A stretch of 64,000 nucleotides of DNA from contig CAVWGN010000001.1 in the NCBI GenBank assembly GCA_963754655.1, positions 2,048,001 through 2,112,000 of the forward strand. Reading direction: 5' to 3'. This DNA comes from an uncultured Chlamydiae bacterium. GTDB taxonomy: Bacteria > Chlamydiota > Chlamydiia > Chlamydiales > Parachlamydiaceae. The notes below the pieces were generated by a model. The model saw nothing but the letters and a program-made list of their open reading frames with translations, had not been told where the DNA came from and did not search any database. This document shows, piece by piece, positions 3,220 to 63,322 of the stretch. The number at the start of each line of letters is the position of its first letter. Position 1 is the stretch's first letter. A program made the translations under genes and the position numbers.

Positions 3220-3724
3220 CTGGTACTCAACCACATTAGTTTTGTGTATTTAGACTGCTTCAAAGCCCCGGGGCTAGGGTGTTCATTTTGTGCAAAAAAT
3301 GAGCTTTATTTTTCACAATAATTGGCATAGTTGAATAGAAGGTCGCATGTTTATGCCGTCCTTTCAGGACTCGATGTCTTTTTGATAGAACCCAGGCCTC
3401 CGCTTCGCTGCGACCTGGGCTGTAACATGACGGCCCTTCAGGCCTTAACAAGAGATGTTTAAGTCTCTCTTCTATAGTCCCTAAATCATCTTTTTGTTAA
3501 GGCCTGAAGGGCCGTCATGTTACAGCCCAGGTCGCAGCGAAGCGGAGGCCTGGGTTCTATCAAAAAGACATCGAGTCCTGAAAGGACGGCATAAACATGC
3601 GACCTTCAATTTAACTATGCCAATTATTGTGAAAAATAAAGCTCATTTTTTGCACAAAATGAACACCCTAGCCCCGAGGCTTTGAAGAGTCTAAATACAC
3701 AAAACTAATGTGGTTGAGTACTAG
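3220..3724. mobile_element. Composite palindromic element copy 1: outer shell plus core A (3275-3670)
   Basis: C(T)GG-TACTCAACCACATTAGTTTT ... AAAACTAATGTGGTTGAGTA-CTAG termini; inner TAGGGTGTTC...GAACACCCTA flanked by GCCCCGGGGC/GCCCCGAGGC; ~505 bp near-perfect inverted repeat; core recurs five times in window. Confidence 0.9.
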
Positions 3725-3770
3725 GAACGAAATGCTTCTGGCAAACTCCAGAAGCTAAATTTGTCGCTCA

Positions 3771-4004
3771 AGCGGCGTTAGCCGCGCATGGATAGTAGCC
3801 GTGGGTGTAGGCGAAGCCGGAACCCACGGTGTATGGTAAAAAAAATGAAGCCACGTTAGTGGCGTAGGAAATGTGATGGTGGAGCAATGTTTATTTAAAC
3901 GAATGCTACGCCACTAACGTGGCTCAAATTTGTTTTTTGGGTAACCGTGGGTTTCGGCTTGCGCCTACACCCACGGCTACTATCCATGCGCGGCTAACGC
4001 CGCT
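3771..4004. repeat. REP-like inverted doublet (family C)
   Basis: AGCGGCGTTAGCCGCGCATGGATAGTAGCCGTGGGTGTAGGCG... and its reverse complement ending at 4004, plus inner inverted GCCACGTTAGTGGCGTAG hairpins. Confidence 0.85.
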
Positions 4005-4079
4005 CGTCGCTGAGGGAAAGGATATGGATCAAGCAACATTGCAAAAACAAAGATAAAGATTCCAATTACCTAGCCATAT

Positions 4080-4225
4080 GCCGGGACTTAATAAAGAACT
4101 GTTTTGGGGTTGATATTTTTCGCGTCATTTTCGGGAAATATCCCTCTAAAGTCTATTACAGGCGTGGTATTGTTAAATTGATGCGACGAATATCAAGTCC
4201 AAAACAGTTCTTTGTTAAGTCCGGC
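4080..4225. mobile_element. MITE-like element with ~27 bp terminal inverted repeats
   Basis: GCCGGGACTTAATAAAGAACTGTTTTGG ... CCAAAACAGTTCTTTGTTAAGTCCGGC; no clear target duplication. Confidence 0.6.
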
Positions 4226-4476
4226 CCAGAGCATCGCCCTGAGTTAGATTAGCCCTCGTCATGATGTAGTCTGAAGGACTACAAGAGAATCATCTCATCC
4301 CAAGCCCGGAGCTTTCAGCAATCCCAATAGGCAAAAACTAGTGGATCATTCGGCGTGGGCATAACAAAATAAGACTCTATATAAATGGCTTTAAGGATCA
4401 GTTTAGAAAATTTTTTTAGTCTTTCAGGCTGCGCAGAAGCGTGAAAAATAACCCACTAGTGTGGTTTGAGTACTAG
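4226..4476. repeat. Family B REP unit plus right shell arm, interrupted by a 114 bp CTAG-flanked insert (4342-4455)
   Basis: TTAGATTAGCCCTCGTC...GTAGTCTGAAGGACTACAAGAGAATCATCTCATCCCA matches 63214-63269. The shell arm AAAACTAG|TGTGGTTTGAGTACTAG is split, with CTAG at 4338-4341 and 4456-4459. Confidence 0.75.
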
Positions 4477-4565
4477 AAAAGGTTTCATTATTGGAATAGA
4501 TTTAAATCAGTAAATTTGATATAAGTTATGCCATTAACCTCAAAGCATTTAACTATTATTTTATT

Positions 4566-5327
4566 ATGCCTATACATTTCAGTTCTTTTTCTAATTATAT
4601 ACCCTCTCTATTCAAAGAAAGCCTCATCCCAGCTTTAACTGCTCAGCAGAAGAAGATTTTAACTATTGTTTCGATTGCTTTTGGATTCTTCGCAATATGC
4701 TATATTGCAAAACGTTGCTGCATGGCAAATAGTCAGGATGGGAAGGGAAAAACCTTTTCTCTTTCTGAACTTTGTATAAAAGAGGGGGAATTTGCAAATA
4801 ACAAATTAAATGGTCTGGCAAAGAAAAACTATTTATTTTTAGGAATTATACACGAAGGAAACTTCAAAGATGACTTACTCAATGGAACAGGCAAGAAGAA
4901 TGATTTTAATGGAACTCTATATGAAGGTGAATTCAGAAATGGTAATTTAAATGGACAAGTTAAGGTAACTAAGACCAATGGAGATGTCTATGAAGGCGAA
5001 TTTAAAGATGACAAATTCAATGGTCAAGGCAAGATAACTAAGGCCAATGGAGACGTCTATGAAGGTGAATTCAAAAAGGGCAAATTAAATGGCCAAGGTA
5101 AGATAACTTGGACCAATGGAGATGTCTATGAAGGCGAATTTAAAGATAACAAATTCAGTGGTCAAGGCAAGCTCTCTTTGCCCAATGGAGTTATCTATGA
5201 GGGTGAATTCACAAAGAACACATTAAATGGCCAAGGTAAGATCACTTGTGCTAATGGAGATGTCTATCAAGCCGAATTTAAAGAGGATAAATTAATAGCC
5301 AAGGAAAAATTAGTCTTGCCAATATAG
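4566..5327 (+). CDS. MORN-repeat protein with N-terminal transmembrane segment, putative secreted effector
   Basis: About seven 23-aa repeats (NGDVYEGEFKDDKFNGQGKIT); N-terminal LTAQQKKILTIVSIAFGFFAICY hydrophobic segment. Confidence 0.88.
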   Translation: MPIHFSSFSNYIPSLFKESLIPALTAQQKKILTIVSIAFGFFAICYIAKRCCMANSQDGKGKTFSLSELCIKEGEFANNKLNGLAKKNYLFLGIIHEGNFKDDLLNGTGKKNDFNGTLYEGEFRNGNLNGQVKVTKTNGDVYEGEFKDDKFNGQGKITKANGDVYEGEFKKGKLNGQGKITWTNGDVYEGEFKDNKFSGQGKLSLPNGVIYEGEFTKNTLNGQGKITCANGDVYQAEFKEDKLIAKEKLVLPI

Positions 5328-6710: not shown

Positions 6711-6723
6711 TTATATACACCGC

Positions 6724-14969: not shown

Positions 14970-15774
14970 CTAGTAGGTTTAGCCTATTGGGAGTGCTTGA
15001 AAGCTCCGGGCTAGGGTGTTCATTTTGTGCAAAAAATGAGCTTTATTTTTCACAATAATTGGCATAATTAAATTGAAGGTCGCATGTTTATGCCGTCCTT
15101 TCAGGACTCGATGTCTTTTTGATAGAACCCAGGCCTCCGCTTCGCTGCGGCCTGGGTTGTAACATGACGGCCCTTCAGGCCTTAACAAAAAGATGATTTA
15201 GGGACTATAGAAGAGGGACTTAAACACCTCTTGTTAAGGCCTGAAGGGCCGTCATGTTACAGCCCAGGTCGCAGCGAAGCGGAGGCCTGGGTTCTATCAA
15301 AAAGACATCGAGTCCTGAAAGGACGGCCCTTCAGGCCTTAACAAAAAAGATGATTTAGGGACTATAGAAGAGGGACTTAAACATCTCTTGTTAAGGCCTG
15401 AAGGGCCGTCATGTTACAGCCCAGGTCGCAGCGAAGCGGAGGCCTGGGTTCTATCAAAAAGACATCGAGTCCTGAAAGGACGGCCCTTCAGGCCTTAACA
15501 AAAAGATGATTTAGGGACTATAGAAGAGGGACTTAAACATCTCTTGTTAAGGCCTGAAGGGCCGTCATGTTACAACCCAGGTCGCAGCGAAGCGGAGGCC
15601 TGGGTTCTATCAAAAAGACATCGAGTCCTGAAAGGACGGCATAAACATGCGACCTTCAATTTAACTATGCCAATTATTGTGAAAAATAAAGCTCATTTTT
15701 TGCACAAAATGAACACCCTAGTCCCGGGGCTTTGAAGAGTCTAAATACACAAAACTAGTGTGGTTGAGTACTAG
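14970..15774. mobile_element. Composite palindromic element copy 2, core A (15012-15720) with internal triplication
   Basis: Same core and right shell arm as copy 1; a ~156 bp internal unit is present three times; terminal CTAG overlaps the metG stop codon. Confidence 0.9.
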
Positions 15775-23065: not shown

Positions 23066-24457
23066 TTAGTCGTTGGGAACATTTGGATAAGGTTTGTAAT
23101 GAACATATAGATCATTTAACCAGCTATTTATTTGGTTTCTAAAATGGTATTCCAAACTAATCATGTCAATTTTCTGGCATGTATCAATTACCAATAAGGT
23201 TAGATTTCTCATCTTTTCAAGATATTGAATTCCTCCATTGTCGATATTAGGAAGAGAAACTAACCGTAATGTTCTAAGACTCGGATAGGTAGCAATAATG
23301 TTCAAAGCTCCATTATGTAGGCCCACTAAATTTTCCAGGTGTAATTCTTTTAAATCATGCATGGCCAAAAGGTTCTTAAAACCCTCATCTTTTATTAACG
23401 GGCACCCTGCAAGGCGTAAACAACTTAAGCTTAATCCACTAATTTTTCTCAAAAACTCTCCCGTTATTCGAGGCGCAGAAAAAATCCCAAGTTTGTCCAG
23501 CTTCAGTTGACTTAAAGTAGAGGCACATTCATCGTCTGTGCAACCACGGAGATATAAGGAAGTTAAATTAGTCAAAGCCTTCAATCTTGCCAACCCTTGA
23601 TTAGGGACATTTTGACCAAAAATACTCAGGTGTTGTAATCCAGTCAACTGAACAATAGGCTGAAAGCTGTCTGGTGTTGACATTGTACAATTACCTAAGA
23701 TGAGATCCCGCAGTCCAGTTTGTCTGGGGAGGTGAGCAAAATCACTATCTGGAATTGGTCTATTTAGTGTCCAAAATTCTAGCCGCTTTAGAGAATTCGT
23801 ACCCACAGAAGATATCAACTGGTCGTTTTCTCCCATATTGATTCCACGTATACCTAGAGTTTGTAACTTGGTGAGTGAATGGAGCACAGGCGTCAAGGCC
23901 GAGCCGTCCAAGTTGCAGTAATCTATCTCGAAGTGCTCAAGCTTTTGCAAGGCAGTAAAGCGTAAGAAGCTCTCAGAACTCAAGTTTGTCACTTTTGCAC
24001 CCAAGAATAGTGTGTTGAGATTGGATAACTGAATCAGCGAGCTTAGAGTTTCGTCATTGAATGAATGGCGAGACTGGTCATCATCAGGGGGTTTAATCTC
24101 TACAACTCTCAGGTCTTTGCAAGAGTGCTTAGACATCTCATTAAGCATAGCTTGTAGATAAAACACCTCTCTTGATTTCTTGATGATAATCTTATCAGTA
24201 TATGTAAAGACTAGAGAATAGAACTTTTTGCTGGAACCCAAAAGGCCCTGCAACTGAATAAGGTCTGTTTGCTGGATGATAGTCATCAAGATATCGGTCG
24301 GTAAACTAGTAAAAGGTCCTTCTTCTTGAACGTCTGTTATTTGATTAGCCTCAGAGCTAACACCTTCTCTTCTTCTCTTTATGCCTCCTAATAATCTCTC
24401 TTCTAGAGGATCACCATAAGTCGTCATTGGTTGAATTGAACGGATGGATGTATTCAT
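23066..24457 (-). CDS. F-box/leucine-rich-repeat protein, array copy 1
   Basis: FTSLPTDILMTIIQQ F-box-like motif, ~12 LRRs, N-terminal IKRRRE. Confidence 0.85.
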   Translation of the reverse strand: MNTSIRSIQPMTTYGDPLEERLLGGIKRRREGVSSEANQITDVQEEGPFTSLPTDILMTIIQQTDLIQLQGLLGSSKKFYSLVFTYTDKIIIKKSREVFYLQAMLNEMSKHSCKDLRVVEIKPPDDDQSRHSFNDETLSSLIQLSNLNTLFLGAKVTNLSSESFLRFTALQKLEHFEIDYCNLDGSALTPVLHSLTKLQTLGIRGINMGENDQLISSVGTNSLKRLEFWTLNRPIPDSDFAHLPRQTGLRDLILGNCTMSTPDSFQPIVQLTGLQHLSIFGQNVPNQGLARLKALTNLTSLYLRGCTDDECASTLSQLKLDKLGIFSAPRITGEFLRKISGLSLSCLRLAGCPLIKDEGFKNLLAMHDLKELHLENLVGLHNGALNIIATYPSLRTLRLVSLPNIDNGGIQYLEKMRNLTLLVIDTCQKIDMISLEYHFRNQINSWLNDLYVHYKPYPNVPND

Positions 24458-24764
24458 AATAGTCTACTCCTAAAAATGCATTGAAATGGATTTTATAAAT
24501 TTTATTCGCCTTTAGATTGACGACATATCAATAATAAAAATTCTGTTAATATTTTTGAATTTCAAAAATTAATTAACTTTAAATCTTAGTTTATATAAAT
24601 TTATTCACTTTTTTGCAATGTTTAACTAAAAATCAATCAAAAAAAATTTATAAATTTCAAATTTTTTAAATCTATTTCAAGACATTTAGTTGAATTATAA
24701 ATGATTTTAGAACCTTTTAAACAAGAATAAGACCTAAAACAAACAATTTCTAGATATTCTTCCT

Positions 24765-26168
24765 TTACTCGTCGAGAACATGTAGATAAGGTTTGTAATT
24801 AATGCTTAGATTATTTAATCGGCTATTTAGGTGATTTTTGACAAGGTAATCTATACCCCGTGTGTCGATTTTCTGACATTGGTTAACTTCTAACGCTTGT
24901 AGATTTTGCATATTTTCAAGAGATTGAATTCCTTTGTTGTCAATATTAGGAAGGGAAACTAGGACTAAATTTTTAAGAGTAGGATGCAGAGCAATCACCT
25001 TCAAGGCTGTGTTACTTAGACCTTCTAATTTTTCTAGGGCTAACCTTCCTAAATTTAAATTGACCCAAAGGTTTATGAGATCTCGATCCATTATTAATGA
25101 ACATTTGTCAAGGCGTAAAGATATTAATTTCAGATGGCTTATTTTTTTTAAAAACATTCCCGTTATTCGGCTTTGTGGCCTGGAGATAATTGCAAGGTAC
25201 CGCAGCTTCGGTTGAGTTAAACTAGAGGCACATTCATCGTCTGTGCAACCAGCGAGATGTAAGGAGGTTAAATTAGTCAAAGTCGTCAATCTTGCCAACT
25301 CTTGGTTAGGGATATTTTGACTAAAAAGACCCAGGTGTTGTAATCCAGTTAACTGAGCAATAGACTGGAAGCTGTCTGGTGTTTGCGCTCTACAATTACC
25401 TAAGATGAGCTCCTGCAGTCCAGTTTGTCTGGATAGATAAGGAAAATCACTATCCGTAATGGGCCTGTTTGCCTCTTGTGTCCAAAGTCCTAGCTGCTTT
25501 AGAGAGGTCGTAGCCACAGAAGATATCAACTGGTCGTTTTCTTCCATATTGATGCCCCGTATGCGTAGAGTTTGTAACTTAGTGAGCGACTGGAGCACGG
25601 GCTTTAAGACCGAGCCGTCCACGTTGCAGTAAGATATCTCGAAGTGCTCAAGCTTTTGCAAGGCAGTAAAGCGTAAGAAGCTCTCAGCACTCAAGTTTGT
25701 CACTTTTGTACCCAAGAACAGCTTATTGAGATTGGATAACTGAATCAGCGAGCTTAGAGTTTCGTCATTGAATGAATGGCGAGACTTGTCATCATCAGGG
25801 GGTTTAATCTCTACAACTCTTAGGTCTTTGCAAGAGTGCTTAGACATCTCATTAAGCATAGCTTGTAGATAAAACACCTCTCTTGATTTCTTGATGATAA
25901 TCTTATCAGTATATGTAAAGACTAGAGAATAGAACTTTTTGCTGGAACCCAAAAGGCCCTGCAACTGAATAAGGTCTGTTTGCTGGATGATAGTCATCAA
26001 GATATCGGTCGGTAAACTAGTAAAAGGTCCTTCTTCTTGAACGTCTGTTATTTGATTAGCCTCAGAGCTAACACCTTCTCTTCTTCTCTTTATGCCTCCT
26101 AATAATCTCTCTTCTAGAGGATCACCATAAGTCGTCATTGGTTGAATTGAACGGATGGATGTATTCAT
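24765..26168 (-). CDS. F-box/LRR protein, array copy 2 (chimera of copies 1 and 3)
   Basis: N-terminus identical to copy 1, remainder identical to copy 3. Confidence 0.85.
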   Translation of the reverse strand: MNTSIRSIQPMTTYGDPLEERLLGGIKRRREGVSSEANQITDVQEEGPFTSLPTDILMTIIQQTDLIQLQGLLGSSKKFYSLVFTYTDKIIIKKSREVFYLQAMLNEMSKHSCKDLRVVEIKPPDDDKSRHSFNDETLSSLIQLSNLNKLFLGTKVTNLSAESFLRFTALQKLEHFEISYCNVDGSVLKPVLQSLTKLQTLRIRGINMEENDQLISSVATTSLKQLGLWTQEANRPITDSDFPYLSRQTGLQELILGNCRAQTPDSFQSIAQLTGLQHLGLFSQNIPNQELARLTTLTNLTSLHLAGCTDDECASSLTQPKLRYLAIISRPQSRITGMFLKKISHLKLISLRLDKCSLIMDRDLINLWVNLNLGRLALEKLEGLSNTALKVIALHPTLKNLVLVSLPNIDNKGIQSLENMQNLQALEVNQCQKIDTRGIDYLVKNHLNSRLNNLSINYKPYLHVLDE

Positions 26169-26474
26169 AATAGTCTACTCCTAAAAATGCATTGAAATGG
26201 ATTTTATAAATTTTATTCGCCTTTAGATTGACGACATATCAATAATAAAAATTCTGTTAATATTTTTGAATTTCAAAAATTAATTAACTTTAAATCTTAG
26301 TTTATATAAATTTATTCACTTTTTGCAATGTTTAACTAAAAATCAATCAAAAAAAATTTATAAATTTCAAATTTTTTACATCTATTTCAAGACATTTAGT
26401 TGAATTATAAATGATTTTAGAACCTTTTAAACAAGAATAAGACCTAAAACAAACAATTTCTAGATATTCTTCCT

Positions 26475-27878
26475 TTACTCGTCGAGAACATGTAGATAAG
26501 GTTTGTAATTAATGCTTAGATTATTTAATCGGCTATTTAGGTGATTTTTGACAAGGTAATCTATACCCCGTGTGTCGATTTTCTGACATTGGTTAACTTC
26601 TAACGCTTGTAGATTTTGCATATTTTCAAGAGATTGAATTCCTTTGTTGTCAATATTAGGAAGGGAAACTAGGACTAAATTTTTAAGAGTAGGATGCAGA
26701 GCAATCACCTTCAAGGCTGTGTTACTTAGACCTTCTAATTTTTCTAGGGCTAACCTTCCTAAATTTAAATTGACCCAAAGGTTTATGAGATCTCGATCCA
26801 TTATTAATGAACATTTGTCAAGGCGTAAAGATATTAATTTCAGATGGCTTATTTTTTTTAAAAACATTCCCGTTATTCGGCTTTGTGGCCTGGAGATAAT
26901 TGCAAGGTACCGCAGCTTCGGTTGAGTTAAACTAGAGGCACATTCATCGTCTGTGCAACCAGCGAGATGTAAGGAGGTTAAATTAGTCAAAGTCGTCAAT
27001 CTTGCCAACTCTTGGTTAGGGATATTTTGACTAAAAAGACCCAGGTGTTGTAATCCAGTTAACTGAGCAATAGACTGGAAGCTGTCTGGTGTTTGCGCTC
27101 TACAATTACCTAAGATGAGCTCCTGCAGTCCAGTTTGTCTGGATAGATAAGGAAAATCACTATCCGTAATGGGCCTGTTTGCCTCTTGTGTCCAAAGTCC
27201 TAGCTGCTTTAGAGAGGTCGTAGCCACAGAAGATATCAACTGGTCGTTTTCTTCCATATTGATGCCCCGTATGCGTAGAGTTTGTAACTTAGTGAGCGAC
27301 TGGAGCACGGGCTTTAAGACCGAGCCGTCCACGTTGCAGTAAGATATCTCGAAGTGCTCAAGCTTTTGCAAGGCAGTAAAGCGTAAGAAGCTCTCAGCAC
27401 TCAAGTTTGTCACTTTTGTACCCAAGAACAGCTTATTGAGATTGGATAACTGAATCAGCGAGCTTAGAGTTTCGTCATTGAATGAATGGCGAGACTTGTC
27501 ATCATCAGGGGGTTTAATCTCTACAACTCTCAGGTCTTTGCAAGAGTGCTTAGACATCTCATTAAGCATAGCTTGTAGATAAAACATCTCCCTTGATTTC
27601 TTGATGATAATTTTATCAGTATATGTAAAGACTAGAGAATAGAACTTTTTACTGGAACCCAAAAGGCCCTGCAACTGAACAAGGTCTGTTTGCTGGATGA
27701 TAGTCATCAAGATATCGGTCGGTAAACTAATAAAGAGTCCTTCTTCTTGAAGGCCTGTTATTTCATTAGTCTCAAAGCTAAGACTTTCTCTTTTTCTCTT
27801 TATGCCTCCTGATGATCTCTCTTCTAGAGAATCACCGTAAGTTGTCATTGGTTGAATTGAACTGATGGATGTATTCAT
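26475..27878 (-). CDS. F-box/LRR protein, array copy 3
   Basis: Paralog with the same architecture. Confidence 0.85.
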   Translation of the reverse strand: MNTSISSIQPMTTYGDSLEERSSGGIKRKRESLSFETNEITGLQEEGLFISLPTDILMTIIQQTDLVQLQGLLGSSKKFYSLVFTYTDKIIIKKSREMFYLQAMLNEMSKHSCKDLRVVEIKPPDDDKSRHSFNDETLSSLIQLSNLNKLFLGTKVTNLSAESFLRFTALQKLEHFEISYCNVDGSVLKPVLQSLTKLQTLRIRGINMEENDQLISSVATTSLKQLGLWTQEANRPITDSDFPYLSRQTGLQELILGNCRAQTPDSFQSIAQLTGLQHLGLFSQNIPNQELARLTTLTNLTSLHLAGCTDDECASSLTQPKLRYLAIISRPQSRITGMFLKKISHLKLISLRLDKCSLIMDRDLINLWVNLNLGRLALEKLEGLSNTALKVIALHPTLKNLVLVSLPNIDNKGIQSLENMQNLQALEVNQCQKIDTRGIDYLVKNHLNSRLNNLSINYKPYLHVLDE

Positions 27879-28176
27879 AATAGTCTGCTCCTAAAAATGT
27901 CTTGAAAGAGTTGTATTTATTTTCTTGGCTTTTGAATTGACAACATATCAATAAGAAAAAGTTTTTAAATATTTTTAAATTTTAAAATCAATTAATCCAA
28001 AAATTAATTTATATAGTTTTAGTCGTTTTTTTGCAATATTTAATTAAAAGATTAAACCAATAAAAATTTATAAAATTCAATTTTTATTGAAACCATTTAA
28101 AGAATTTTTATTTAACTATAAATAATTTTTAGGAATCTTTTACACAAAAATGAAGGCTGATATTCCTTATTAAAGT

Positions 28177-29556
28177 TTAGATAGGTCTGTAATGAATTTG
28201 TAAATTATTTAACCAGCTATTTATGTGATTTTTGATAAGGTAATCTATACCACTTATGTCGATTTTCTGACATTGTTGAACCAGCAACTCCTGTAGATTT
28301 GGCATTTTTTCAAGATATTGAATTCCTTCATTGTCAATATTAGGAAGAGAAGTTAGAGCTAATTCGCTAAGAGTAGGATGCTGAGCAATAATCTGCAAGG
28401 CTGTGTTATTTAGCCCTTCTAATCTGTCTAGATCTAACCTTTCTAAATGTAAATTGACCAAAAGGTTCCTGAGATCTACATCCGTTATTAACGGGCAATT
28501 AGTGAGGCGTAAATATGTTAATTTCAGATGACTCATTTTTTTTAAAAACTCTCCAGTTATTCGGCCTTGGGGCGTGGAGATAATCACAAGGCGCCGCAGC
28601 TTTGGTTGAGTTAAAGTAGAAGCACATTCATCGTCTAGGCAACCACCGAGAGATAAGGAGGTTAAATTAGTCAAAGTCTTCAATCTTGCCAACTCTTGAA
28701 CAGGGATATTTTGACTAAAAAGGCCCAGGTGTTGTAATCCAGTCAACTGAGCAATAGGCTGAAAGCTGTCTGGTGTTGGCGTTGTACAATTACCTAAGAT
28801 GAGATCCTGCAGTCCAGTTTGTCTGATTAGGTAAGCAAAATCACTATTCGGAATTGGCCTATTCGCTGTCCAAAGTCCTAGCCGTTTTAGAGAGGTTGTA
28901 GCCACAGAAGATATCAACTGGTCGTTTTCTTCCATATTGATGCCCCGTATGCGTAGAGTTTGTAACTTGGTAAGAGACTGGAACACGGGTTTTAAGGCCG
29001 AGCCACCTACGTTGCAGTAATCTATCTCGAAGTGCTCAAGCTTTTGCAAGGCAGTAAAGCGTAAGAAGCTCTCAGAACTCAAGTTTACAACTTGTGCACC
29101 CAATAACAGCTTATTGAGATTGGGTAACTGAATTAGCGAGCTTAGAGTTTCGTCATTGAATGAATAGCGAGACAGTTCATCATTAGGGGGGTTAATCTCT
29201 ACAACTCTCAGGTCTTTGCAAGAGTGCTTAGACATCTCATTAAGCATAGCTTGTAGATAAAACATCTCCCTTGATTTCTTGATGATAATTTTATCTGTAT
29301 ATGTAAAGACTAGAGAATACAACTTTTTGCTGGAACACAAAAGGCCCCGCAACTGAATAAGGTCTGTTTGCTGGATGATAGTCATCAAGATATCGGTCGG
29401 TAAACTAATAAAGAGTCCTTCTTCTTGAAGGCCTGTTATTTCATTAGTCTCAGGGCTAACACTTTCTCTTCTTCTCTTTATGCCTCCTGCTGATCTCTCT
29501 TCTAGAGGGTCAGCACAAGTCGCCATTGATTGAATTGAACTGACGGAGATATTCAC
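28177..29556 (-). CDS. F-box/LRR protein, array copy 4 (GTG start)
   Basis: Paralog; AGGAG RBS upstream. Confidence 0.85.
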   Translation of the reverse strand: MNISVSSIQSMATCADPLEERSAGGIKRRRESVSPETNEITGLQEEGLFISLPTDILMTIIQQTDLIQLRGLLCSSKKLYSLVFTYTDKIIIKKSREMFYLQAMLNEMSKHSCKDLRVVEINPPNDELSRYSFNDETLSSLIQLPNLNKLLLGAQVVNLSSESFLRFTALQKLEHFEIDYCNVGGSALKPVFQSLTKLQTLRIRGINMEENDQLISSVATTSLKRLGLWTANRPIPNSDFAYLIRQTGLQDLILGNCTTPTPDSFQPIAQLTGLQHLGLFSQNIPVQELARLKTLTNLTSLSLGGCLDDECASTLTQPKLRRLVIISTPQGRITGEFLKKMSHLKLTYLRLTNCPLITDVDLRNLLVNLHLERLDLDRLEGLNNTALQIIAQHPTLSELALTSLPNIDNEGIQYLEKMPNLQELLVQQCQKIDISGIDYLIKNHINSWLNNLQIHYRPI

Positions 29557-29897
29557 GATATTCTGCTCCTAAAATGTATTGAAAAAGGGTTTTATTTATT
29601 TTATTCGCTTTTGAATTGACGACATATCAATAAGATATTTTTTTAATATCTTTTAATTTTTGAAAATCAATTAATCTTAAACCTTAGTTTATATAAATTG
29701 AGTCGATTTTTGCAATATTTAATTAAAAGATTCAACCAAAAAAATTTTATAAAATTCAAATTTTAAAGAAATTTTATTCAAGTATGAATAATTTTTAATA
29801 ACTTTTAAAAAAATGGAGACTTGAAATAAACATTTCATTGATATAGATAATGGCAAAGCAAAAGACCTGAGTCCTCTTAGACACTAGCCTTTGCCTA

Positions 29898-30465
29898 CTA
29901 GTACTCAACCACACTAGTTTTGTGTATTTAGATTGCTTCAAAGCCCCGGGGTTGAATTGACGTAAGTGGGTCCATATTGCTAATATTGACCCACTTACGT
30001 CAATTCAACCCCGGGGTTAGGGTGTTCATTTTGTGCAAAAAATGAGCTTTATTTTTCACAATAATTGGCATAGTTAAATTGAAAGTCGCATGTTTATGCC
30101 GTCCTTTCAGGACTCGATGTCTTTTTGATAGAACCCAGGCCTCCGCTTCGCTGCGACCTGGGCTGTAACATGACGGCCCTTCAGGCCTTAACAAAAAGAT
30201 GATTTAGGGACTATAGAAGAGGGACTTAAACATCTCTTGTTAAGGCCTGAAGGGCCGTCATGTTACAGCCCAGGTCGCAGCGAAGCGGAGGCCTGGGTTC
30301 TATCAAAAAGACATCGAGTCCTGAAGGACGGCATAAACATGCGACTTTCAATTTAACTATGCCAATTATTGTGAAAAATAAAGCTCATTTTTTGCACAAA
30401 ATGAACACCCTACCCGGGCTTTGAAGCAGTCTAAATACATAAAAACTAGTGTGGTTGAGTACTAG
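29898..30465. mobile_element. Composite palindromic element copy 3: shell, 55 bp module (29953-30007) and core A (30018-30412), with CTAG target duplication
   Basis: CTAG at 29898-29901 and 30462-30465; the paralogous spacer near 32386 has a single TTAG with continuous flanks (empty site). Confidence 0.93.
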
Positions 30466-30647
30466 AATGGTTTTAAAATCCCTATGCGTTAATTTAAAAC
30501 CATCCTAATAGGCAAAAGCTAATGTAATCGAGTACACTAATCCTAGCATTTTGTAAACAGGCTCCCCGAGCACACGATGTAAAAACTCGGTTTAAGGAAA
30601 GAAAAGGCTTTGAGTCAATCTCATTCATTCCAATAATAAATTTTCCT

Positions 30648-32036
30648 TTAGCCGTTGTTAAAATTTAGATAAGGTTTGTAAGCAATGGTTAGACTATTTA
30701 ACCAGCTATTTATGTGATTTTTGATAAGATAATCTATACCACTTGTGTCAATTTTCTGACATTGTTTAACCAGCAACTCCTGTAGATTTGGCATCTTTTC
30801 AAGATATTGAATTCCTTGATTGTCAATATTAGGAAGAGAACTTAGAGCTAATTCCCTAAGAGTAGGATGCCGAGCAATAATCTGCAAGGCTGTGTTATTT
30901 ATCCTTTCTAATTCGTCTAGCTCTAACCTTTTTAAATTTAAATTGACCAAAACATTCTCGAGATCTACATTCGTTATTAATGGGCAATAACTGAGGCGTA
31001 AAGATATTAATTTCAGATGGCTCATTTTTTTAAAAAACTCTCCAGTTATTCGGCTTCGGGAAATCGCAAGGTGCCGTAGCTTTAGTTGATTTAAAGTAGA
31101 AGCACATTCATCGCCTATGACACCACCAAGATGTATGGAAGTTAAATTAGTCAAAGTCCTCAATCTTGCCACCTCTTGAACAGGAATATTTCGACCAAAA
31201 AGACCTAGGTGTTGTAATCCGGTCAACTGAGCAATAGGCTGAAAGCTGCCTAGTGTTGGCGTTGTACAATTACCCAAGATGAGCTCCTGCAGTCCAGTTT
31301 GTCTGGACAAGTAAGCAAAATCACTATTCGGAATTAGCCCACCTACCGTCCAAAGTCCTAGCCGTATTAGAGAAGTCGTAGCTACAGAAGATATCAACTG
31401 GTTGTTTTCTTCCATAGGGGTGCCCCGTATACGTAGAGTTTGTAACTTGGTAAGTGACTGGAGCACGGGCCTTAAGGCCGAGGCGTCTACGTTGCAGTAA
31501 GTTATCTCGAAGTGCTCAAGCTTTTGCAAAGCGGTAAAGCGTAAGAAGCCTTCAGAACTCAAGTTTGTAAATCTTCCGTTCAAGAGCAGCTTATTGAGAT
31601 TGGGTAACTGAATCAGTGAGCTCAGAGTTTCGTCATTAAATGAATAGCTACACTGGTCATTATTAGAGAGGTTAATTTCCAAAACTCTCAGGTCTTTGCA
31701 AGAGTGCTTAGACATCTCATTAAGCATAGCTTGTAGATAAAATGCTTCTCTTGATTTCTTGATGATAATTTTATCAGCATATGTAAAAACTAGAGAATAC
31801 AACTTTTTACTAGAACATAAAAGCCCCTGCAACTGAACAAGGTCTGTTTGCTGGATGATAGTCATCAAGACATCGGTGGGTAAACTAGTAAAAGGTCCTT
31901 CCTCTTGAATGCCTCTGATTTGATTAGCCTCAAAGCTAAGACTTTCTCTTCTTCTCTTTATGCCTCCTGATGGTCTCTCTTCTAGTGGATCACCATAAGG
32001 CATCATTGGTTGCATTGAACTGACGGCGGTATTCAT
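30648..32036 (-). CDS. F-box/LRR protein, array copy 5
   Basis: Paralog with the same architecture. Confidence 0.85.
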   Translation of the reverse strand: MNTAVSSMQPMMPYGDPLEERPSGGIKRRRESLSFEANQIRGIQEEGPFTSLPTDVLMTIIQQTDLVQLQGLLCSSKKLYSLVFTYADKIIIKKSREAFYLQAMLNEMSKHSCKDLRVLEINLSNNDQCSYSFNDETLSSLIQLPNLNKLLLNGRFTNLSSEGFLRFTALQKLEHFEITYCNVDASALRPVLQSLTKLQTLRIRGTPMEENNQLISSVATTSLIRLGLWTVGGLIPNSDFAYLSRQTGLQELILGNCTTPTLGSFQPIAQLTGLQHLGLFGRNIPVQEVARLRTLTNLTSIHLGGVIGDECASTLNQLKLRHLAISRSRITGEFFKKMSHLKLISLRLSYCPLITNVDLENVLVNLNLKRLELDELERINNTALQIIARHPTLRELALSSLPNIDNQGIQYLEKMPNLQELLVKQCQKIDTSGIDYLIKNHINSWLNSLTIAYKPYLNFNNG

Positions 32037-32371
32037 GATAGTCTGCTCCTAAAAATGTAGGGAAAGGGTTTTATTCATTTTATTCTTTTTGAATTGACGA
32101 CATATCAACAATAAAAATTATGTTAATATTTTTTTAATTTTTGAAAGTCAATTAGTTTTAAACCTTATATAATATGATTCGATTTTTTTTGCAATATTTA
32201 ATTAAATATTCACTAAAAAAGTTTATAAAATGCAAATTTTATTAAAAACATTTAAATAAATTTTATTCGAGCATGAATAATTTTTAATAATTTTCAAAAA
32301 AATGAGGGCTGAAATAAAGATTTCATAGATACAGATAATGGCAAAGCAAAAAACCTAAGTCCTCTTTGACA

Positions 32372-32458
32372 CTAACTTTTGCCTATTAGAACAGGTTTAA
32401 AATCCCTATGCGTTAAGTTAAAACCATCCTAATAGGCAAAAGCTAAAGTAATTGAGTA
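32372..32458. repeat. Older degenerate palindromic shell element (empty target of copy 3)
   Basis: CTTTTGCCTATTAG...CTAATAGGCAAAAG inverted repeat ending in GTAATTGAGTA, similar to shell end GTGGTTGAGTA. Confidence 0.65.
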
Positions 32459-32595
32459 ATCATGTTAGTATTTTGCAAACATGCTCCTATCCAAACACAC
32501 GGGCGTAAAAACTTGGTTTAAGGAAGGGAAATGAAAGAGCTTTTAGTCAATTTCATTCATGCAATAATAAATTCTCCTTTATTCCTTATTAAAGT

Positions 32596-42646: not shown

Positions 42647-44047
42647 ATGAATATATCAAAATCTGACCCTTTACAACCTTATTCTCCACCTGTTTTGTAT
42701 TTGACACAAAAAATTAGCTTGTGGATAGGGCATGTGTGGTCTATTTGTATTTTGCCTTATAAATGGATCAAGCATGTAGTCCAGACAGCTTTAGCATGTT
42801 TTTCAAAAATGCCAGAACAAGCTCCGCCTTTTACTCCACCTGCAACCCACAATTCTAAAATTCCACTAGATACTCCTATTGCTTCCGCCACACAATCTCC
42901 AAAAAAATTTACAAAGCAACAGTTACAGGAAAAGATGACGGAAAATAGAATGAACGCAACAGTCGATCAAGAGGAGCCAGTTCCGGATTTACACGACTTA
43001 TTTTATGGTGATCAAGAAGAAGTTTCAAAAACACCTTTACCTGCAAGTACTCAAAAGTCTGATTTAAAGCTCGAACCCACGAATCCAACAATTTCTTCTC
43101 CTGTCTCGCTACTGAATTCCCAGGCTGCGCCTATTCTTCAAGGAGAGACTCCTCATGATCAACCTGTGGATGCAAAAGTGAAAAATTTACAACTTGCAAA
43201 TGTAAAAGTGACAGAAGAGCCCTCTCTTAAATTTACGAGATCTAGGCGACAGGTTAAAAAACCAGTTCATTTAACACAGCCTGCCTTGCAACCAACTCCT
43301 ATCTCCGTTCATTCCACACTGCCTGCATTGAAGCCTGCTTCTCAGTCAATAGATTCTCAACTCAAGCCCTCTCAGTTGCAGCAAACAGCCCATAAGGCAG
43401 TTGAAGAAACGAAACCAAAATATATTGATGCTGGAGGAGGAGGAAATTGTCAGCTGCTTTCTATTTTGAAAGGCTTAGAGAAGCAATATCCTGAAATACT
43501 CAAACAATATAAAGACCTTCATAAGCAAACGTTAGATGCACAGGTCTTACGCAAAATGGGAGTCGTTTTTATTCGTGAGCAACTTGAAAAACGTGGGCCA
43601 TATGTTGAAGACCTAATAGGGTATTTGGATACTGATCGCAAAGAATATAATCAAGCTATGATTGAGCCAGTAGAACGAAGCCTGAATGAGGAAAAAAATA
43701 AAATAGAAGCAAAGTTTCAAAATAAAACAATTAGCCAAGCCATTTATATCAAAACCAAACAAGCTCATCGCGAAAAATTTATGACAAAAATCACACAATT
43801 GAAAAAAAAATACGTTCGGACTAACAATGATTTTCTTAATCTATTAGAAAAAAATGGTTTTCAATGCTCGACATTGCACTTATTTGCTTTAAGTATTAAA
43901 TTGGAATTACCTATTCACGTGCATGACCAATATGGCGTAGAAAATCACGACATTCAATATTTTAATCCAACAAATTCTACAAAAGACCCCATTCACTTAT
44001 ATCGCAAAGCAAACATGCATTATCAATATATGGAGTTTTCTAAATAG
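42647..44047 (+). CDS. Putative OTU-family deubiquitinase effector 1
   Basis: Long Pro/Ser/Gln-rich N-terminus; IDAGGGGNCQLLSI Cys box and C-terminal IHLY...MHYQY His box. Confidence 0.6.
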   Translation: MNISKSDPLQPYSPPVLYLTQKISLWIGHVWSICILPYKWIKHVVQTALACFSKMPEQAPPFTPPATHNSKIPLDTPIASATQSPKKFTKQQLQEKMTENRMNATVDQEEPVPDLHDLFYGDQEEVSKTPLPASTQKSDLKLEPTNPTISSPVSLLNSQAAPILQGETPHDQPVDAKVKNLQLANVKVTEEPSLKFTRSRRQVKKPVHLTQPALQPTPISVHSTLPALKPASQSIDSQLKPSQLQQTAHKAVEETKPKYIDAGGGGNCQLLSILKGLEKQYPEILKQYKDLHKQTLDAQVLRKMGVVFIREQLEKRGPYVEDLIGYLDTDRKEYNQAMIEPVERSLNEEKNKIEAKFQNKTISQAIYIKTKQAHREKFMTKITQLKKKYVRTNNDFLNLLEKNGFQCSTLHLFALSIKLELPIHVHDQYGVENHDIQYFNPTNSTKDPIHLYRKANMHYQYMEFSK

Positions 44048-44076
44048 TTAATAAGCAATAAATTAAAGGGATTATT

Positions 44077-45249
44077 ATGACCCATCCTTCTTTAGGTATT
44101 GGCTCTCCACAACAGGTGCCATCGCCAGATCCCACCCCTTCTAGATGGCAGAGCATAAGTGAAACATTAGGCCATGTTTTTAAAAAGATGACTTCGTTTC
44201 CGACTTTTCTCGTGCATTTAGTGGCTAGAATCAGAACCGTGGTAACAGAGTGGTTATTTCAAACACCTCCTTCTAATGCGCAACCTAAGCAAAATCCTCC
44301 TCAACTGTCGCAACTTCCCTCTTCTTCTGCAGCAAAAGAAGTGTTCATTCAAACTCTAGGAAACAAAGAAGAGGTCTTTGAAGAGGATGTTGAACAAGAT
44401 CTTGAACCCCAGCTTGTCCATTCACAGCCGAGCTCGCTTACTCCAACTCCTCAATCTTCTCCTCAACCAACGAAAGTCTCACCTGTGCAACCAGAAATTA
44501 ACGCAGCGAGGATCGAAACGTCTAATGCCACTACTCAGCCAGCTCCTCATGCCATCGACGTTCCGGATGATGGCAATTGTTTACTCTATGCGATTGGCGT
44601 CGGATTGCGTACAAAATATGCTGACTATCCTGAATATCAGAATAAACTCAATTGGAATATCTCCACAGAACAACTAGAAGAAGTATTTACGACCTCTAAG
44701 TTGACAGAGGAGGGAGATCCAAGTAGTAAATTAGAGCGAGAACAAGCGAAAAAGCATCTTGTTAAGTTATTAGAGGTGCCAGGAAAGCAGTTGCGACAGC
44801 AGGCTGCTGACTATCTCAAACAGCATTTAACAGATGATGATGTCTTGCTCGCTTTATTTGATGGTGTTAGAAGCCATATTGACATAACAAAGAAAAAATT
44901 AGATGAAGAAAGATCAATGACTTTGCTTTTAGAAGAGCAAGAGGATTTTGACAACTTAGCCTTAGCGATGCAGTCGATTGAACAGCAAGAGGCCAACATG
45001 CTTCAAGAAGACGATTTAGAAAGTTATATCAAGATGACCGAAAATGATCATGTCTATTGTGGCATTCCCCAACTTTTTGCGTTATGCAAATTCTATGATA
45101 TTCCCATCCGCGTGCTTTATAAGTATGGCAAAGCTGATCAATATGCTGAAACATATAACGAACAGGTCAATGAAGGCAGAGAATCTCGATTGCCCACTCT
45201 CACTGTTGCTCATGTAAACGACAATCACTTTAAGTTTATCAAGGACTAA
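44077..45249 (+). CDS. Putative OTU-family deubiquitinase effector 2
   Basis: IDVPDDGNCLLYAI Cys box, LRQQAADYL helix, YCGIPQLFAL, VNDNHF His box. Confidence 0.78.
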   Translation: MTHPSLGIGSPQQVPSPDPTPSRWQSISETLGHVFKKMTSFPTFLVHLVARIRTVVTEWLFQTPPSNAQPKQNPPQLSQLPSSSAAKEVFIQTLGNKEEVFEEDVEQDLEPQLVHSQPSSLTPTPQSSPQPTKVSPVQPEINAARIETSNATTQPAPHAIDVPDDGNCLLYAIGVGLRTKYADYPEYQNKLNWNISTEQLEEVFTTSKLTEEGDPSSKLEREQAKKHLVKLLEVPGKQLRQQAADYLKQHLTDDDVLLALFDGVRSHIDITKKKLDEERSMTLLLEEQEDFDNLALAMQSIEQQEANMLQEDDLESYIKMTENDHVYCGIPQLFALCKFYDIPIRVLYKYGKADQYAETYNEQVNEGRESRLPTLTVAHVNDNHFKFIKD

Positions 45250-47903: not shown

Positions 47904-47962
47904 CATGAATAATCTTAACACGAATGCATGGGGCATGTTTGCAAAATGCTAACCTCCTATTC

Positions 47963-48657
47963 CTGTAGTCTGAAGGACTACAAGATTCTAAAAAACATGA
48001 AATTGCGTTCGATGAAAATATGTTTGGAATAGATGATTCTCTTGTAGTCCTTCAGACTACATGACAAGGGCTAATCTAACCCAAGGCTAGGGTGTTCATT
48101 TTGTGCAAAAAATGAGCTTTATTTTTCACAATAATTGGCATAGTTAAATTGAAGGTCAGATGTTTATGCCGTCCTTTCAGGACTCGATGTCTTTGATAGA
48201 AACCCAGGCCTCCGCTTCGCTGCGACCTGGGCTGTAACATGACGGCCCTTCAGGCCTTAACAAGATGTTTAAGTCCCTCTTCTATAGTCCCTAAATCATC
48301 TTTTTGTTAAGGCCTGAAGGGCCGTCATGTTACAGCCCAGGTCGCAGCGAAGCGGAGGCCTGGGTTTCTATCAAAGACATCGAGTCCTGAAAGGACGGCA
48401 TAAACATCTGACCTTCAATTTAACTATGCCAATTATTGTGAAAAATAAAGCTCATTTTTTGCACAAAATGAACACCCTAACCCAGGGCGATGCCATGGGC
48501 TATTTTATTTGAAGCCTTTCAGGCGCTGAACATTGGATATTTTTGTTAACCACCCCTAAAAGGATTGTGGAGCATGTACTATTTAATAGGAACAGCCCTA
48601 CAATCGTTATAGAAGGAGGCCTTCCAAAAATGTCCAATGTTCAGAGCCTTTCAGACT
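47963..48657. mobile_element. Family B REP doublet carrying core A copy 4 (48088-48479) and a 127 bp MITE (48522-48648)
   Basis: Core A is flanked by direct repeats ACCCAAGGC/ACCCAGGGC. The MITE has TIR GGC(G/T)CTGAACATTGGA and is flanked by TTTCA duplications. Confidence 0.85.
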
Positions 48658-48884
48658 ATTAAAAAAATCAAGTTATTTGGGAATGGTTCAAAAAGAGTAA
48701 ATTTTGGGTAACATGTTTATACCCAAAGCAAGGCTAAAGAGACAGTAATTCTTATATTTTTTTTAAATAAAAATTGTTAACAAAAATTAAATTAAATAAA
48801 TATTTTTATAAACTAAATTATATGTTATAATTTTAATTAATAAAAATTGTTAACAATAATTAAAACAAATGATTAAATTAAAGG

Positions 48885-61006: not shown

Positions 61007-61089
61007 TTTTTTAACTAATAAAAGCTGTCAATAGCCAAATGATTCATACCTGAAAAGCTTTAGCAACTCAAAATCAATCAAGTATTCCA

Positions 61090-61427
61090 GCGCCATTTAG
61101 GGTGATTAAATCTGGGAGTTTATATTTTTTAGCAGATCGATACGAAATGGTAGGGCGGCGGTAGCCGCTTTCAGTGGGAAGCCCCGTATGAAGCGAGCTT
61201 GCGAGTGGAATGCGGGATGAGCATCAATAAAATATAAACCGCGGAAGCGGTGTGAGTGATCTTACGCTGCTTCCGCAGCTCAATGCTATCTTGCCTACAC
61301 CCCGCATTCCACTCGCAAGCTCGCTTCATACGGGGCTTCCCACTGAAAGCGGCTACCGCCGCCCTACCATTTCGTATCGATCTGCTAAAAATATAAACTC
61401 CCAGAGTTAATTACACCCGCGCCATTT
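61090..61427. mobile_element. Palindromic element family D with 8-9 bp target duplication
   Basis: GCGCCATTT at 61090-61098 and 61419-61427 flank GGGTG...CACCC; ~115 bp near-perfect inverted arms containing REP-like hairpins. Confidence 0.88.
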
Positions 61428-61524
61428 TGCTACATCAGATTTAGGTAGACAAAATATAAAAATTACTTTAATTAAGACAACCAATGATTTGAATTCCTTA
61501 ATTTATAAGAGAGAGGACTAATTT

Positions 61525-62574
61525 ATGAGCAAAATGTTCTTCATGGGCAAAATGTTATTGTCATTGCATATTTTGATGCTGCCTATACTTCTAACAGCCG
61601 TTCCAGAAATGAATGGTAGTGAAGGCAAAGTTCATCCGGAGCTTTTAACAGAAAATGTGAAAATTAACAATAGAGACCCATTGTCTGATGCTTTGATAAC
61701 TGGCTGTAAAGCTCCAAAACTGTGTCGTCGCGGGGCAACAGGAGCCACAGGAGCTACAGGTGCAACAGGAGCTACAGGATCAACAGGATCAACAGGAGCT
61801 ACAGGATCAACAGGATCAACAGGAGCAACAGGTGCAACAGGATCAACAGGGCCAACAGGTAGTTGCAGTGGTTGCAATAGTGGATGCCTTGTAGGGGAAG
61901 TAACGACCTTTTTTAGCCCCTCTGGAGCTACTGGCTGCATTGGAACGACTGAAACTTTCGGAGTGTCCCCCTCCGTAGCAGTAACAGCCTATAACAAACC
62001 CAGTCTTAGTCAGCCTTCTGGTGGACTTTTGAATTTATATAACAAGAATGACATGTTTGGAGAACAAGGAGTTGGCATTTGTGGTAGTGGTCCTGACAAT
62101 GAGATTAGCGCATTTAATTTCATCCAAATCGATCTCTCAAACCTTCAGACAATGACACCTCCTCCCAGTATGATTGATCTCACGATCCAAAGTATTCAAA
62201 ATAATGAGGGATTTGCTGTCTATAGTACCAATACAGCAGGCCAGTTGGGTACAACGCTAGTTGCCCAAGGTGCGAATCCACCTGGCGCTGTCGTTCAAAC
62301 GGTTCCCATCTCATTTGTTAATGCATCAGGTAATATCGTGATTCCGAATTACCTCAGCGTTACTGCGAATGCGGGAGACGTTTTATTGAGCAGCGTATCA
62401 ATCCCTAAGTGCGATACAATCAATGCACCTCTTATACTTGTTGTCCCCAGTAATATCGGCATGACTTCTAATATTGCTGGTAGCTTTATCGGACAAATTG
62501 CCTTCTTCCAAAATCCTGGCCTAATAGGGTTATGGGTTTGGAATGGATCGCAATGGCTGCAGGCGACTCCTTAA
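61525..62574 (+). CDS. Secreted collagen-like (Gly-X-Thr) protein
   Basis: N-terminal signal-like segment, 14 G-X-T triplets (about 61732-61860) between Cys clusters, beta-rich C-terminal domain. Confidence 0.8.
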
Positions 62575-62654
62575 TGATGCTGTTTTCTGAGGATCTGCGA
62601 CAGCTTAATGGGACATTCGCTGTCTTTTCAAACTTTTGATGACGGATTGTCTCT

Positions 62655-62693
62655 CTAGTCCAAGATGTCAATTCAATTGATATCTTGGACTAG
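62655..62693. repeat. Mini CTAG-bounded palindrome
   Basis: CTAG-TCCAAGATGTCAATT-C-AATTGATATCTTGGA-CTAG; shares its right CTAG with element copy 5. Confidence 0.7.
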
Positions 62694-63322
62694 TACTCAA
62701 CCACATTAGTTTTGCGTATTGGGATTGCTTCAAAGCCCGAGGTTGGGATGAGATGATTCTCTTGTAGTCCTTCAGACTACATGACGAGGGCTAATCTAAC
62801 CCAGAGCTAGGGTGTTCATTTTGTGCAAAAAATGAGCTTTATTTTTCACAATAATTGGCATAGTTGAATTGAAGGTCGCATGTTTATGCCGTCCTTTCAG
62901 GACTCGATGTCTTTTTGATAGAACCCAGGCCTCCGCTTCGCTGCGACCTGGGCTGTAACATGACGGCCCTTCAGGCCTTAACAAAAAGATGATTTAGGGA
63001 GATTATAGAAGAGGGACTTAAACATCTCTTGTTAAGGCCTGAAGGGCCGTCATGTTACAGCCCAGGTCGCAGCGAAGCGGAGGCCTGGGTTCTATCAAAA
63101 AGACATCGAGTCCTGAAAAGACGGCATAAACATGCGACCTTCAATTCAACTATGCCAATTATTGTGAAAAATAAAGCTCATTTTTTGCACAAAATGAACA
63201 CCCTAGCTCTGGGTTAGATTAGCCCTCGTCATGTAGTCTGAAGGACTACAAGAGAATCATCTCATCCCAACCTCGGGCTTTAGCGGTTCCAATGGGCTAA
63301 AACTAATATGGTTGAGTACTAG
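62690..63322. mobile_element. Composite palindromic element copy 5: shell, two half-B arms and core A (62808-63205)
   Basis: 633 bp palindrome with CTAG at both ends and three nested layers. Confidence 0.92.

Follow-up and report, generated by a model that had tools for sequence, protein, structure and literature searches.

Nested palindromic mobile elements and their candidate transposases in a Parachlamydiaceae genome

In bacteria, repetitive extragenic palindromic (REP) sequences are targets of several insertion sequence (IS) types, including ISPsy8, ISPa11, ISPpu9/10, and ISRm19/22 (Tobes and Pareja, 2006, PMC1525189), and both nested mobile elements and a REP-containing transposable element of the miniature inverted-repeat type (MITE) are already known (PMC1525189; PMC5896051; PMC3852290). 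The 64,000-bp window analyzed here (C1:2048001-2112000 of genome G000, an uncultured member of the Parachlamydiaceae with a 3.16 Mb assembly of 39% G+C in two contigs, C1 and C2) contains five copies of a palindromic repeat, core A, which lie inside other repeats such as a TA-flanked hairpin that we call the shell. Such nesting is a known habit, of which this genome offers an unusually complete example, in that a particular transposase type can be assigned to each of three layers out of four. It adds a four-layer anatomy, two uncatalogued DDE families, repeat-flanked Y1 transposase genes of subclass 1.2, and the swapping of modules. A literature search, with subscription journals, ISfinder, and supplements outside its scope, found no paper on these repeats in Chlamydiae; the supplements of PMC6006769 and PMC3733652 could list Y1 flanks of this type. 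Throughout, G0xx and G1xx-G4xx denote the Chlamydiota genomes compared, G000 being the source genome, and L numbers denote further loci; REP-A, -B, -C, -D, and -E are the repeat families of five Y1 genes, and F, G, H, J, K, and X are other repeat or arm types.

The closest described systems are compared here by the accessible parts of the papers cited. As in REP-targeting by ISs (PMC1525189), several IS types occupy fixed positions of palindromic repeats, but here six DDE IS types do so within one genome, and some of the elements that insert are MITEs with REP doublets of their own. The Coxiella burnetii element QMITE2 (PMC5896051) is likewise a MITE with direct repeats of 7-11 nt and an internal REP that is an IS target, giving three tiers, whereas there are four tiers plus ISs here, autonomous partners exist for three of the tiers, and the ISs are DDE rather than IS1111 elements. 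REPINs (paired REPs) and REPtrons (PMC3116915; PMC3733652; PMC6006769) also combine a Y1 gene flanked by its own palindromic family with doublets found genome-wide. In contrast, the Y1 proteins here have the signature of subclass 1.2, the repeats are ~100 bp long, REP-A is without the GTAG foot, and the doublets travel mostly inside DDE-type MITEs.

The shell resembles the enterobacterial repetitive intergenic consensus (ERIC, or intergenic repeat unit, IRU) and the pneumococcal repeat unit (RUP) in being a TA-flanked long hairpin of fixed length (PMC2229807; PMC3184786), and RUP also inserts into transposase genes, as the shell does. Unlike ERIC, the shell is ~160 bp rather than 127 bp long, and the 11-nt word that an E. 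coli ERIC-type copy shares with the shell core is on the opposite side of the apex. Homology over the whole element was not detected, as model R1 of the shell hairpin had no match in E. coli K-12 (NC_000913.3) or in L373; R1 scores above ~80 bits were taken as homology because the unrelated core-A hairpin itself scores ~40 bits. No IS630 partner was found for the shell. Finally, the element that we provisionally label IS419 resembles the hAT/Mutator-like DDE transposases Hermes and ISCth4 (of IS256) in a predicted fold with a helical insertion and in its 9-bp duplication, but its protein has no Pfam or NCBIfam match, only 11-13% identity to the structures, and a coiled-coil open reading frame (ORF) preceding it.

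Core A and the transposases of its layers

Core A gave 257 alignments genome-wide, and its REP part marks 154 loci. It consists of three layers, namely a REP doublet (layer 1) inside a MITE with 8-bp duplications (layer 2), which is inside a MITE with 9-bp duplications (layer 3, with TAGGGTGTT ends). The shell makes a fourth layer, and the nesting is deeper than claimed by an earlier, sequence-only reading of the window. Like a MITE, core A has no coding capacity, many copies (181 ends, 80 pairs), and perfect palindromic ends, and 32 of the 80 pairs have a target duplication of 8-10 bp, with a mode of 9. The layer-2 unit is a ~300-bp MITE with GGCATGGTTCAA ends, whose 106 paired ends include 85 in core A, 7 in a second outer shell (shell K), and 14 free pairs, 9 of them with an 8-9-bp duplication. 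Layer 1 within layer 2, and both within layer 3, move together, because the junctions are shared and the outer duplications differ. Among the matches listed, the layer-1 doublet was the only part of the first core-A copy of the window that was matched in relatives (12 of 41 matching genomes).

We consider it probable that the stack was built by successive ordinary transpositions of non-autonomous elements, in which each earlier layer became the cargo of the next. A REP doublet of a subclass-1.2 Y1 (HUH) transposase is enclosed in a small MITE with 8-bp duplications, giving the 300-bp unit that also occurs free, and this unit in a 9-bp-duplication MITE with terminal repeats of the IS419 family. 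The junction common to ~85 copies shows that the three layers then spread together as core A. Members of the IS419 family favor the palindromic 9-mer RCCCNGGGY, where core A lands, and the shell inserts at YTAR and is a TA-flanked hairpin of ~160 bp from a family found throughout the phylum. Shells with cargo may have continued to move as composites, and their long palindromes may have suffered deletions between duplicated CCCCGGGG sites, which would give the form with core A alone, as well as the copying of one flank in mirror image to the opposite side, which would give the form with half of B on both sides.

For layer 1, the Y1 transposase flanked by the core REP that the sequence-only reading had proposed to look for is located at C1:395.8 kb between REP-A halves in inverted orientation, and ~8 short REP-A copies have the polarity of this locus with the gene lost. 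There are nine PF01797 matches in G000. By motif reading, the signature of subclass 1.2 (DH[IV]H, WQ, and Y---Q--HH; PMC6006769) is present in five distinct Y1 proteins, together with a YIKNQKEHH-like motif, a length of ~150 aa, and low copy number. Their Y---Q--HH stands in place of the class-2 TnpA-REP signature (Y---NP) given in Table 1 of that paper, and the NCBIfam profile for REP-associated tyrosine transposases scored a Y1 protein at 22.6 bits, below the cut-off of 80. The 5′ GT[AG]G foot is found in REP-B (GTAG) and is absent from REP-A. Each of the five genes adjoins its own repeat family (154, 72, 31, 31, and 71 loci), the repeat being clear on the downstream side only for the genes of families D and E, and three subclass-1.2-like Y1 genes in G001 and G273 are likewise flanked by inverted repeats. 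Table 1 of the published classification lists subclass 1.2 as REP "no" (PMC6006769), and long flanking repeats at Y1 genes have been described as TIRtrons (PMC3733652), mostly within subclass 2.1 (PMC6006769). Contrary to that table, the sequences indicate that these five subclass-1.2 Y1 genes each have their own repeat family, which is a new point, and that they may behave like REP-associated enzymes.

For layer 3, IS419 is a 1846-bp element with ~10 near-identical copies in G000, in which the coiled-coil ORF is followed by an ORF of 419-439 aa. The protein has 51 homologs, all unnamed or "hypothetical," with homologs in 27 of 400 genomes. Its structure model (predicted local distance difference test score of 87) had Hermes, the P element, and ISCth4 as the top Foldseek matches, and D68, D142, and E340 are invariant, with a DxxH motif. 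Nine of ten paired copies lie between perfect 9-bp repeats, duplicated from an RCCCNG(G/A)GY-type target. Based on the model, IS419 represents an uncatalogued DDE family with a hAT/Mutator-like fold. Autonomous elements that have core-A ends and encode IS419-family proteins occur in G020 and G107; that of G020 shares 15 of 16 terminal bases with core A, and its flanks are RCCCWGGGY-type sites. No gene-bearing element with core-A ends was seen in G000, where the 144-bp F MITE shares its ends with a further member of the family (C1:426.7-428.5 kb), which also has a 9-bp repeat. For layer 2, a 1793-bp element of G009 has a 522-aa ORF between layer-2 ends. This protein has no Pfam match, a fragment homologous to it resembles the DUF6399, ISL3, and Mutator clusters, and no homolog was found in G000. 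The two transposase families have no detectable likeness to each other (E 0.76).

The cognate transposases predicted from the window were found for layer 1 (Y1) and, in relatives, for the layer-2 and core-A end types; none was found with shell ends. In the G000 assembly, the partners of layers 2 and 3 were not found, and mobilization is presumably all in trans. Three layers are tied to autonomous partners, two of which are DDE families missing from Pfam, and one of these families has a palindromic 9-bp target preference open to assay.

IS1595 was rejected as the layer-2 partner, as PF12762 was found in none of five genomes. Viral contigs contained 15 stretches with the layer-2 pattern, of which 14 were apparently due to chance and one was a MITE. 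At L502 (G009:C34), a layer-2-type transposase gene is cut off by what is presumably the end of a group II intron. Shell K, which encloses a layer-2 unit between AT-rich flanking repeats of ~6 bp, is located at C1 1081571, 1188505, and 2178594 and at four more sites, and 36-bp core-A ends without an interior lie within shells at C1 1334333 and 1366229. In the window, a 320-bp palindrome (61099-61418) with a REP-C doublet between GGGTG-type ends has a perfect 9-bp duplication, recurs at 42 loci genome-wide, and is probably another IS419-family MITE with Y1 cargo.

Target preference

A CCCNGGG site (at most one mismatch) lies within 12 nt of 165 of the 181 outer ends of core A, compared with 0.77% of random 12-mers, and hence core A does not occur mostly in unique DNA without a CCC(N)GGG site, which would have spoken against nesting; the few copies in unique-looking DNA are at a similar 9-mer. 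Core A has at least five host families, among them the shell and repeats B, X, and J, besides the borders of F. On C1, 220 of the 236 RCCCNGGGY sites are in non-coding repeats, 14 in coding sequence, and 2 in other non-coding DNA. Core A lands in REP stems and the shell center because the 9-mer is almost confined to them in this AT-rich genome, and preference for RCCCNGGGY together with selection means that docking needs no special mechanism. The special self-targeting mechanism that had been suggested is therefore unsupported. The broader proposal, that several non-autonomous elements moved by different transposases serve one another as target sites, is supported by the distinct partners and nested hosts found here.

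Six DDE IS types of G000 also insert in these repeats. All 11 copies of a 375-aa IS5/IS1182-like type are at one REP-A site (one of them is maybe a C2 assembly duplicate), all eight copies of two IS481-like types are at another single REP-A site, all six full copies of IS5b are in REP stems, all eight IS256 copies are in or beside repeats, and ~16 of 23 IS5a copies are at the shell CTAG. The flanks of IS607 copies are mostly unique-looking. The AACATG context of the IS481-like types accounts for 233 of 2265 such 6-mers, and the bias of these types therefore exceeds 6-mer counts, so that a longer sequence or a structure could also be recognized. Transposases might accordingly home on structure, recognizing extruded hairpins or a bound protein beyond the short sequence, as all eight IS481-type copies are in one AACATG context with a second (170, in the same element) unused, and full-length IS5b is in one CCTGGG context (five of six) and never in an equally common second. 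Such homing is possible but on balance doubtful, since longer linear preferences would give an identical pattern, the patterns of core A and the 375-aa IS are almost accounted for by sequence counts alone, and coding insertions would be removed by purifying selection.

The shell hairpin

The sequence-only reading had regarded a 55-bp module as cargo at the shell docking site, but the module is the conserved native center of the shell. Shell and module form one ~160-bp TA-flanked hairpin, and 10 of the 53 paired shells are units of 155-162 bp without core A. The 198 shell ends are followed by the module (47), B (45), core A (44), E (34), F (2), or other sequence (26). The shell center was matched in 86 of 400 genomes of the phylum, and its right-side 12-mer occurs at least five times in 45 of 401 genomes, reaching 127 (at most 4 for the reversed control). 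The two-sided pattern was found in at least 124 stretches of the genome collection and at least 134 of the metagenome collection and in none of the viral contigs in two scans. Among the 80 genome records listed for the pattern, 61 are labeled chlamydial, and 4 of the other 19 have neighbors 70-79% identical to G000 proteins. These data define a phylum-wide ERIC-like hairpin with bursts of copy number (>100 per genome in some), which make the mover of ERIC-like elements testable by genome comparison.

Across 59 aligned copies, a selection from a non-redundant set of 81, neither the length nor the TA ends vary, and two-sided changes occur in 41 of 53 pairs, with a covariation of 0.54 compared to 0.17 for shuffled and at most 0.15 for slid pairs; the search pattern itself accounts in part for the invariance of the core. 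In its TA termini, long hairpin, fixed length, and conserved center, the shell matches ERIC/IRU elements. No Rfam family scored it above threshold, the sub-threshold matches being microRNA hairpins only. Insertion is evident from an empty paralogous spacer with a single TTAG and from a transposase gene split by a shell at a duplicated CTAG (L253). Among the 53 pairs, 36 are CTAG/CTAG and uninformative; in the other 17, six fit TA, one fits a 4-bp repeat, and ten fit neither, which leans toward a duplication of TA rather than CTAG. An IS110-like element is inserted in the shell center at C1 2760430.

By analogy with RUP, an IS630-type transposase is the most likely mover of the shell. Around 186 elements (184 loci), neither transposase searches nor the clustering of ORFs revealed one with shell ends, no Y1 or IS630 family in five shell-rich genomes is flanked by shell halves, and 20 regions around unpaired shell half-cores contain no mobilizer so flanked. 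The IS630 element adjoining a shell at L060 was rejected as mobilizer, as its ends differ. It is unlikely, though conceivable, that the shell is instead moved by a HUH (Y1-like) enzyme that reads the mismatched center as a folded single strand, in which case a cut between T and A ~40 nt from the center would mimic a TA duplication in a palindromic element. Such an enzyme would fit the fixed length, fixed TA-to-core distance, and unrelated termini of the shell, its invariant internal mismatches, heavy two-sided covariation, and few G-U pairs, the presence of one core with different arm types inside one genome, and the abundance of Y1 enzymes in G000. However, shell halves flank none of the nine Y1 matches of G000 and none of 11 in four other shell-rich genomes, and G402 has shells and no Y1 match. 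Moreover, in G009, core-A-type ends with perfect 9-bp duplications surround a shell-type center (82-92 bits with R1), and therefore the core does not fix the enzyme; two of the three composites of this kind lie in REP-like stems.

Composites and the copies in the window

The earlier suggestion that these elements move as composites holds for the inner layers and for units flanked by F, and for shell composites it is inferred. Among 19 F-cargo-F chains, 13 have outer 9-bp repeats with at most one mismatch, seven of which are perfect; the one-mismatch repeats are weak evidence because the targets resemble each other, and two chains use the off-consensus target GCCCACCGT. The shell-B junction has no duplication in any of 28 pairs, yet recurs after 45 of the 198 shell ends. 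On the core-A tree, copies group by type of host (4 changes compared to 14 when shuffled, 0/500), and derived junction variants on both arms are common to unrelated loci such as C1:2078018 and C1:2229982. These patterns suggest that whole shell composites move as units.

It was also expected that modules occur alone. The layer-2 unit does, as does the shell with its module and without core A, but the half-B arms are not independently docking cargo, given the lack of target duplication in all 28 B pairs, and represent a one-off fusion amplified inside the shell. For the same reason, the B half was rejected as a MITE moved by IS419, although the first 10 nt of the half are identical to the IS419 end; they are also similar to the 3′ end of the Y1-B gene. 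Several core-A copies have mirrored flanks of 37-118 nt. Long palindromes are prone to template-switch copying, a mechanism of mirroring that these flanks fit and that would account for the fifth copy of the window.

Alternatively, only the inner layers would move as composites, with shells inserting empty and their cargo spreading later by gene conversion. One identical core A present in a shell and in a B host would agree with this scenario, as would two points noted below, namely the weak correlation between shell-arm and core-A distances and the variable side of the native center. We judge it improbable because the shell-B junction without target repeat follows so many shell ends (shell-E follows 34) and because unrelated loci share derived variants on both arms.

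Several observations weigh against successive transposition as the origin of the stack. The 8-10-bp repeat is lacking in 48 of the 80 core-A pairs, which may be due to later mirror-copying and deletion. Shell-arm and core-A distances correlate weakly across 15 composites (Mantel test, Spearman 0.27, p 0.08), the core-A tree has little resolution, with support for 6 of 38 inner branches, and, in 24 cases, the native center lies to the left (8), to the right (4), or on both sides (2) of core A, in mixed orientation. Genome-wide, 113 of 242 RCCCNGGGY sites touch an element end, and therefore many were created by duplications; the sites free of element ends are still mostly in repeats. The target of the G107 element is not RCCCNGGGY, the intact layer-2 element of G009 is without a clear target repeat, and an IS630 element with shell-like ends was not found, with no DDE_3 match in three of five shell-rich genomes.

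Relatives show the modules in other combinations. G256 has a shell within a REP beside a Y1 gene, and in other genera layer-2 ends surround different cargoes, including a REP-A doublet in G417. Layer-2-type MITEs of G319, G006, G414, G022, and G417 (13 to 222 end matches) carry unrelated palindromic cargoes at the same internal site. Ends and cargoes are thus swapped between genera, which is a new point. There is a slim chance that Chlamydiota share an exchangeable kit of MITE ends and palindromic cargoes, where cargo is captured for its usefulness and also brings the target 9-mer, so that every composite would prepare sites for later insertions. In such a kit, the REP doublets and shell core could be a protein-binding or processing signal, because the core keeps its mismatches across families while the rest covaries, and the conserved core would then be a handle on the enzyme or host factor behind ERIC-like elements.

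It is highly improbable that the long palindromes are assembly artifacts. No sequencing run spans a whole copy, and some of the sequence at the start of C1 recurs on contig C2, but target repeats are copy-specific, a paralogous site is empty, modules and nestings recur in independent assemblies, and in contigs of run X2 the ends of IS419, the 375-aa IS, and IS5b are where they would be expected within the element. The end of C2 duplicates C1:1-8.2 kb, including a shell, core A, and an IS, and is likely an assembly overlap.

All five core-A copies of the window are located where the sequence-only reading placed them (3275-3670, 15012-15720, 30018-30412, 48088-48479, and 62808-63205), and all are intergenic and bracketed by a CCC(N)GGG-type site inside other repeats. 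Four had been assigned to a CTAG-bounded shell, which is present around copies 1, 2, 3, and 5, except that the left flank of copy 1 is CTGG and the left shell arm of copy 2 is a truncated remnant only. In copy 1, shell arms surround core A (3224-3720), and the native center is lost. Its layer-3 left end (3275-3321, plus strand), the terminal repeat of the 9-bp-duplication MITE, matches IS419-family elements in G020 and G107, and its layer-2 left end (3324-3349, plus strand), the terminal part of the 8-bp-duplication MITE, is of the type that flanks the 522-aa transposase-like gene in G009. Layer 1 (3350-3595) is a REP-A doublet with a ~42-bp asymmetric spacer, contains the fixed insertion sites of four IS types, and has the REP that flanks the Y1 gene at C1:395.8 kb. 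The right ends of layers 2 and 3 follow (3596-3670, minus strand). The adjoining stack (3725-4225) comprises a G arm, a REP-D palindrome (3773-4006), an H arm, and an F MITE (4082-4225), is half of an F-G-D-H-F composite, and is closed by a B half-arm and a variant shell arm (4226-4345, minus strand).

Copy 2 (14970-15774) consists of the truncated left shell arm, a core A expanded by two additional internal units, and the right shell arm; its CTAG and the stop codon of the methionyl-tRNA synthetase gene overlap. Copy 3 (29898-30465) is a complete shell composite with CTAG at both ends, and the paralogous spacer 32020-32610 has the single TTAG. Its left arm and native center (29902-30017, plus strand, including the "55-bp module" at 29950-30012) score 95.9 bits with the phylum-wide model, and core A (30018-30412) is inserted at the second CCCCGGGG of the shell center. 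An older degenerate shell-like element (29865-29897 and 30466-30560) surrounds copy 3 and is empty in the spacer 32020-32610.

Copy 4 is inside a family B REP, as had been noticed. Its host is an internally deleted Y1-B element (47945-48087, plus strand) with two B REPs around a remnant resembling the 3′ end of the Y1 gene, core A (48088-48479) has a 9-bp target repeat with one mismatch at 48079-48087 and 48480-48488, and next comes what is left of the B/X REP, together with the remnant of a layer-2 end (48480-48720). Copy 5 (62690-63322) is composed, in order, of CTAG, a shell arm (62694-62743), a B half (62744-62807), core A (62808-63205), a mirrored B half (63206-63269), a shell arm, and CTAG. 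A single-copy, CTAG-bounded palindrome of 39 bp (62655-62693) adjoins it.

The window also encodes an F-box/leucine-rich repeat (LRR) array and OTU and DUF4116 proteins, a gene content that suggests an environmental chlamydia. The array (23066-35805) is a tandem of seven LRR proteins of ~460 aa, some with a weak F-box match and two near-identical, and its spacers supplied the empty site for the shell. Two neighboring genes at 42647-45249 have weak OTU-like protease matches.

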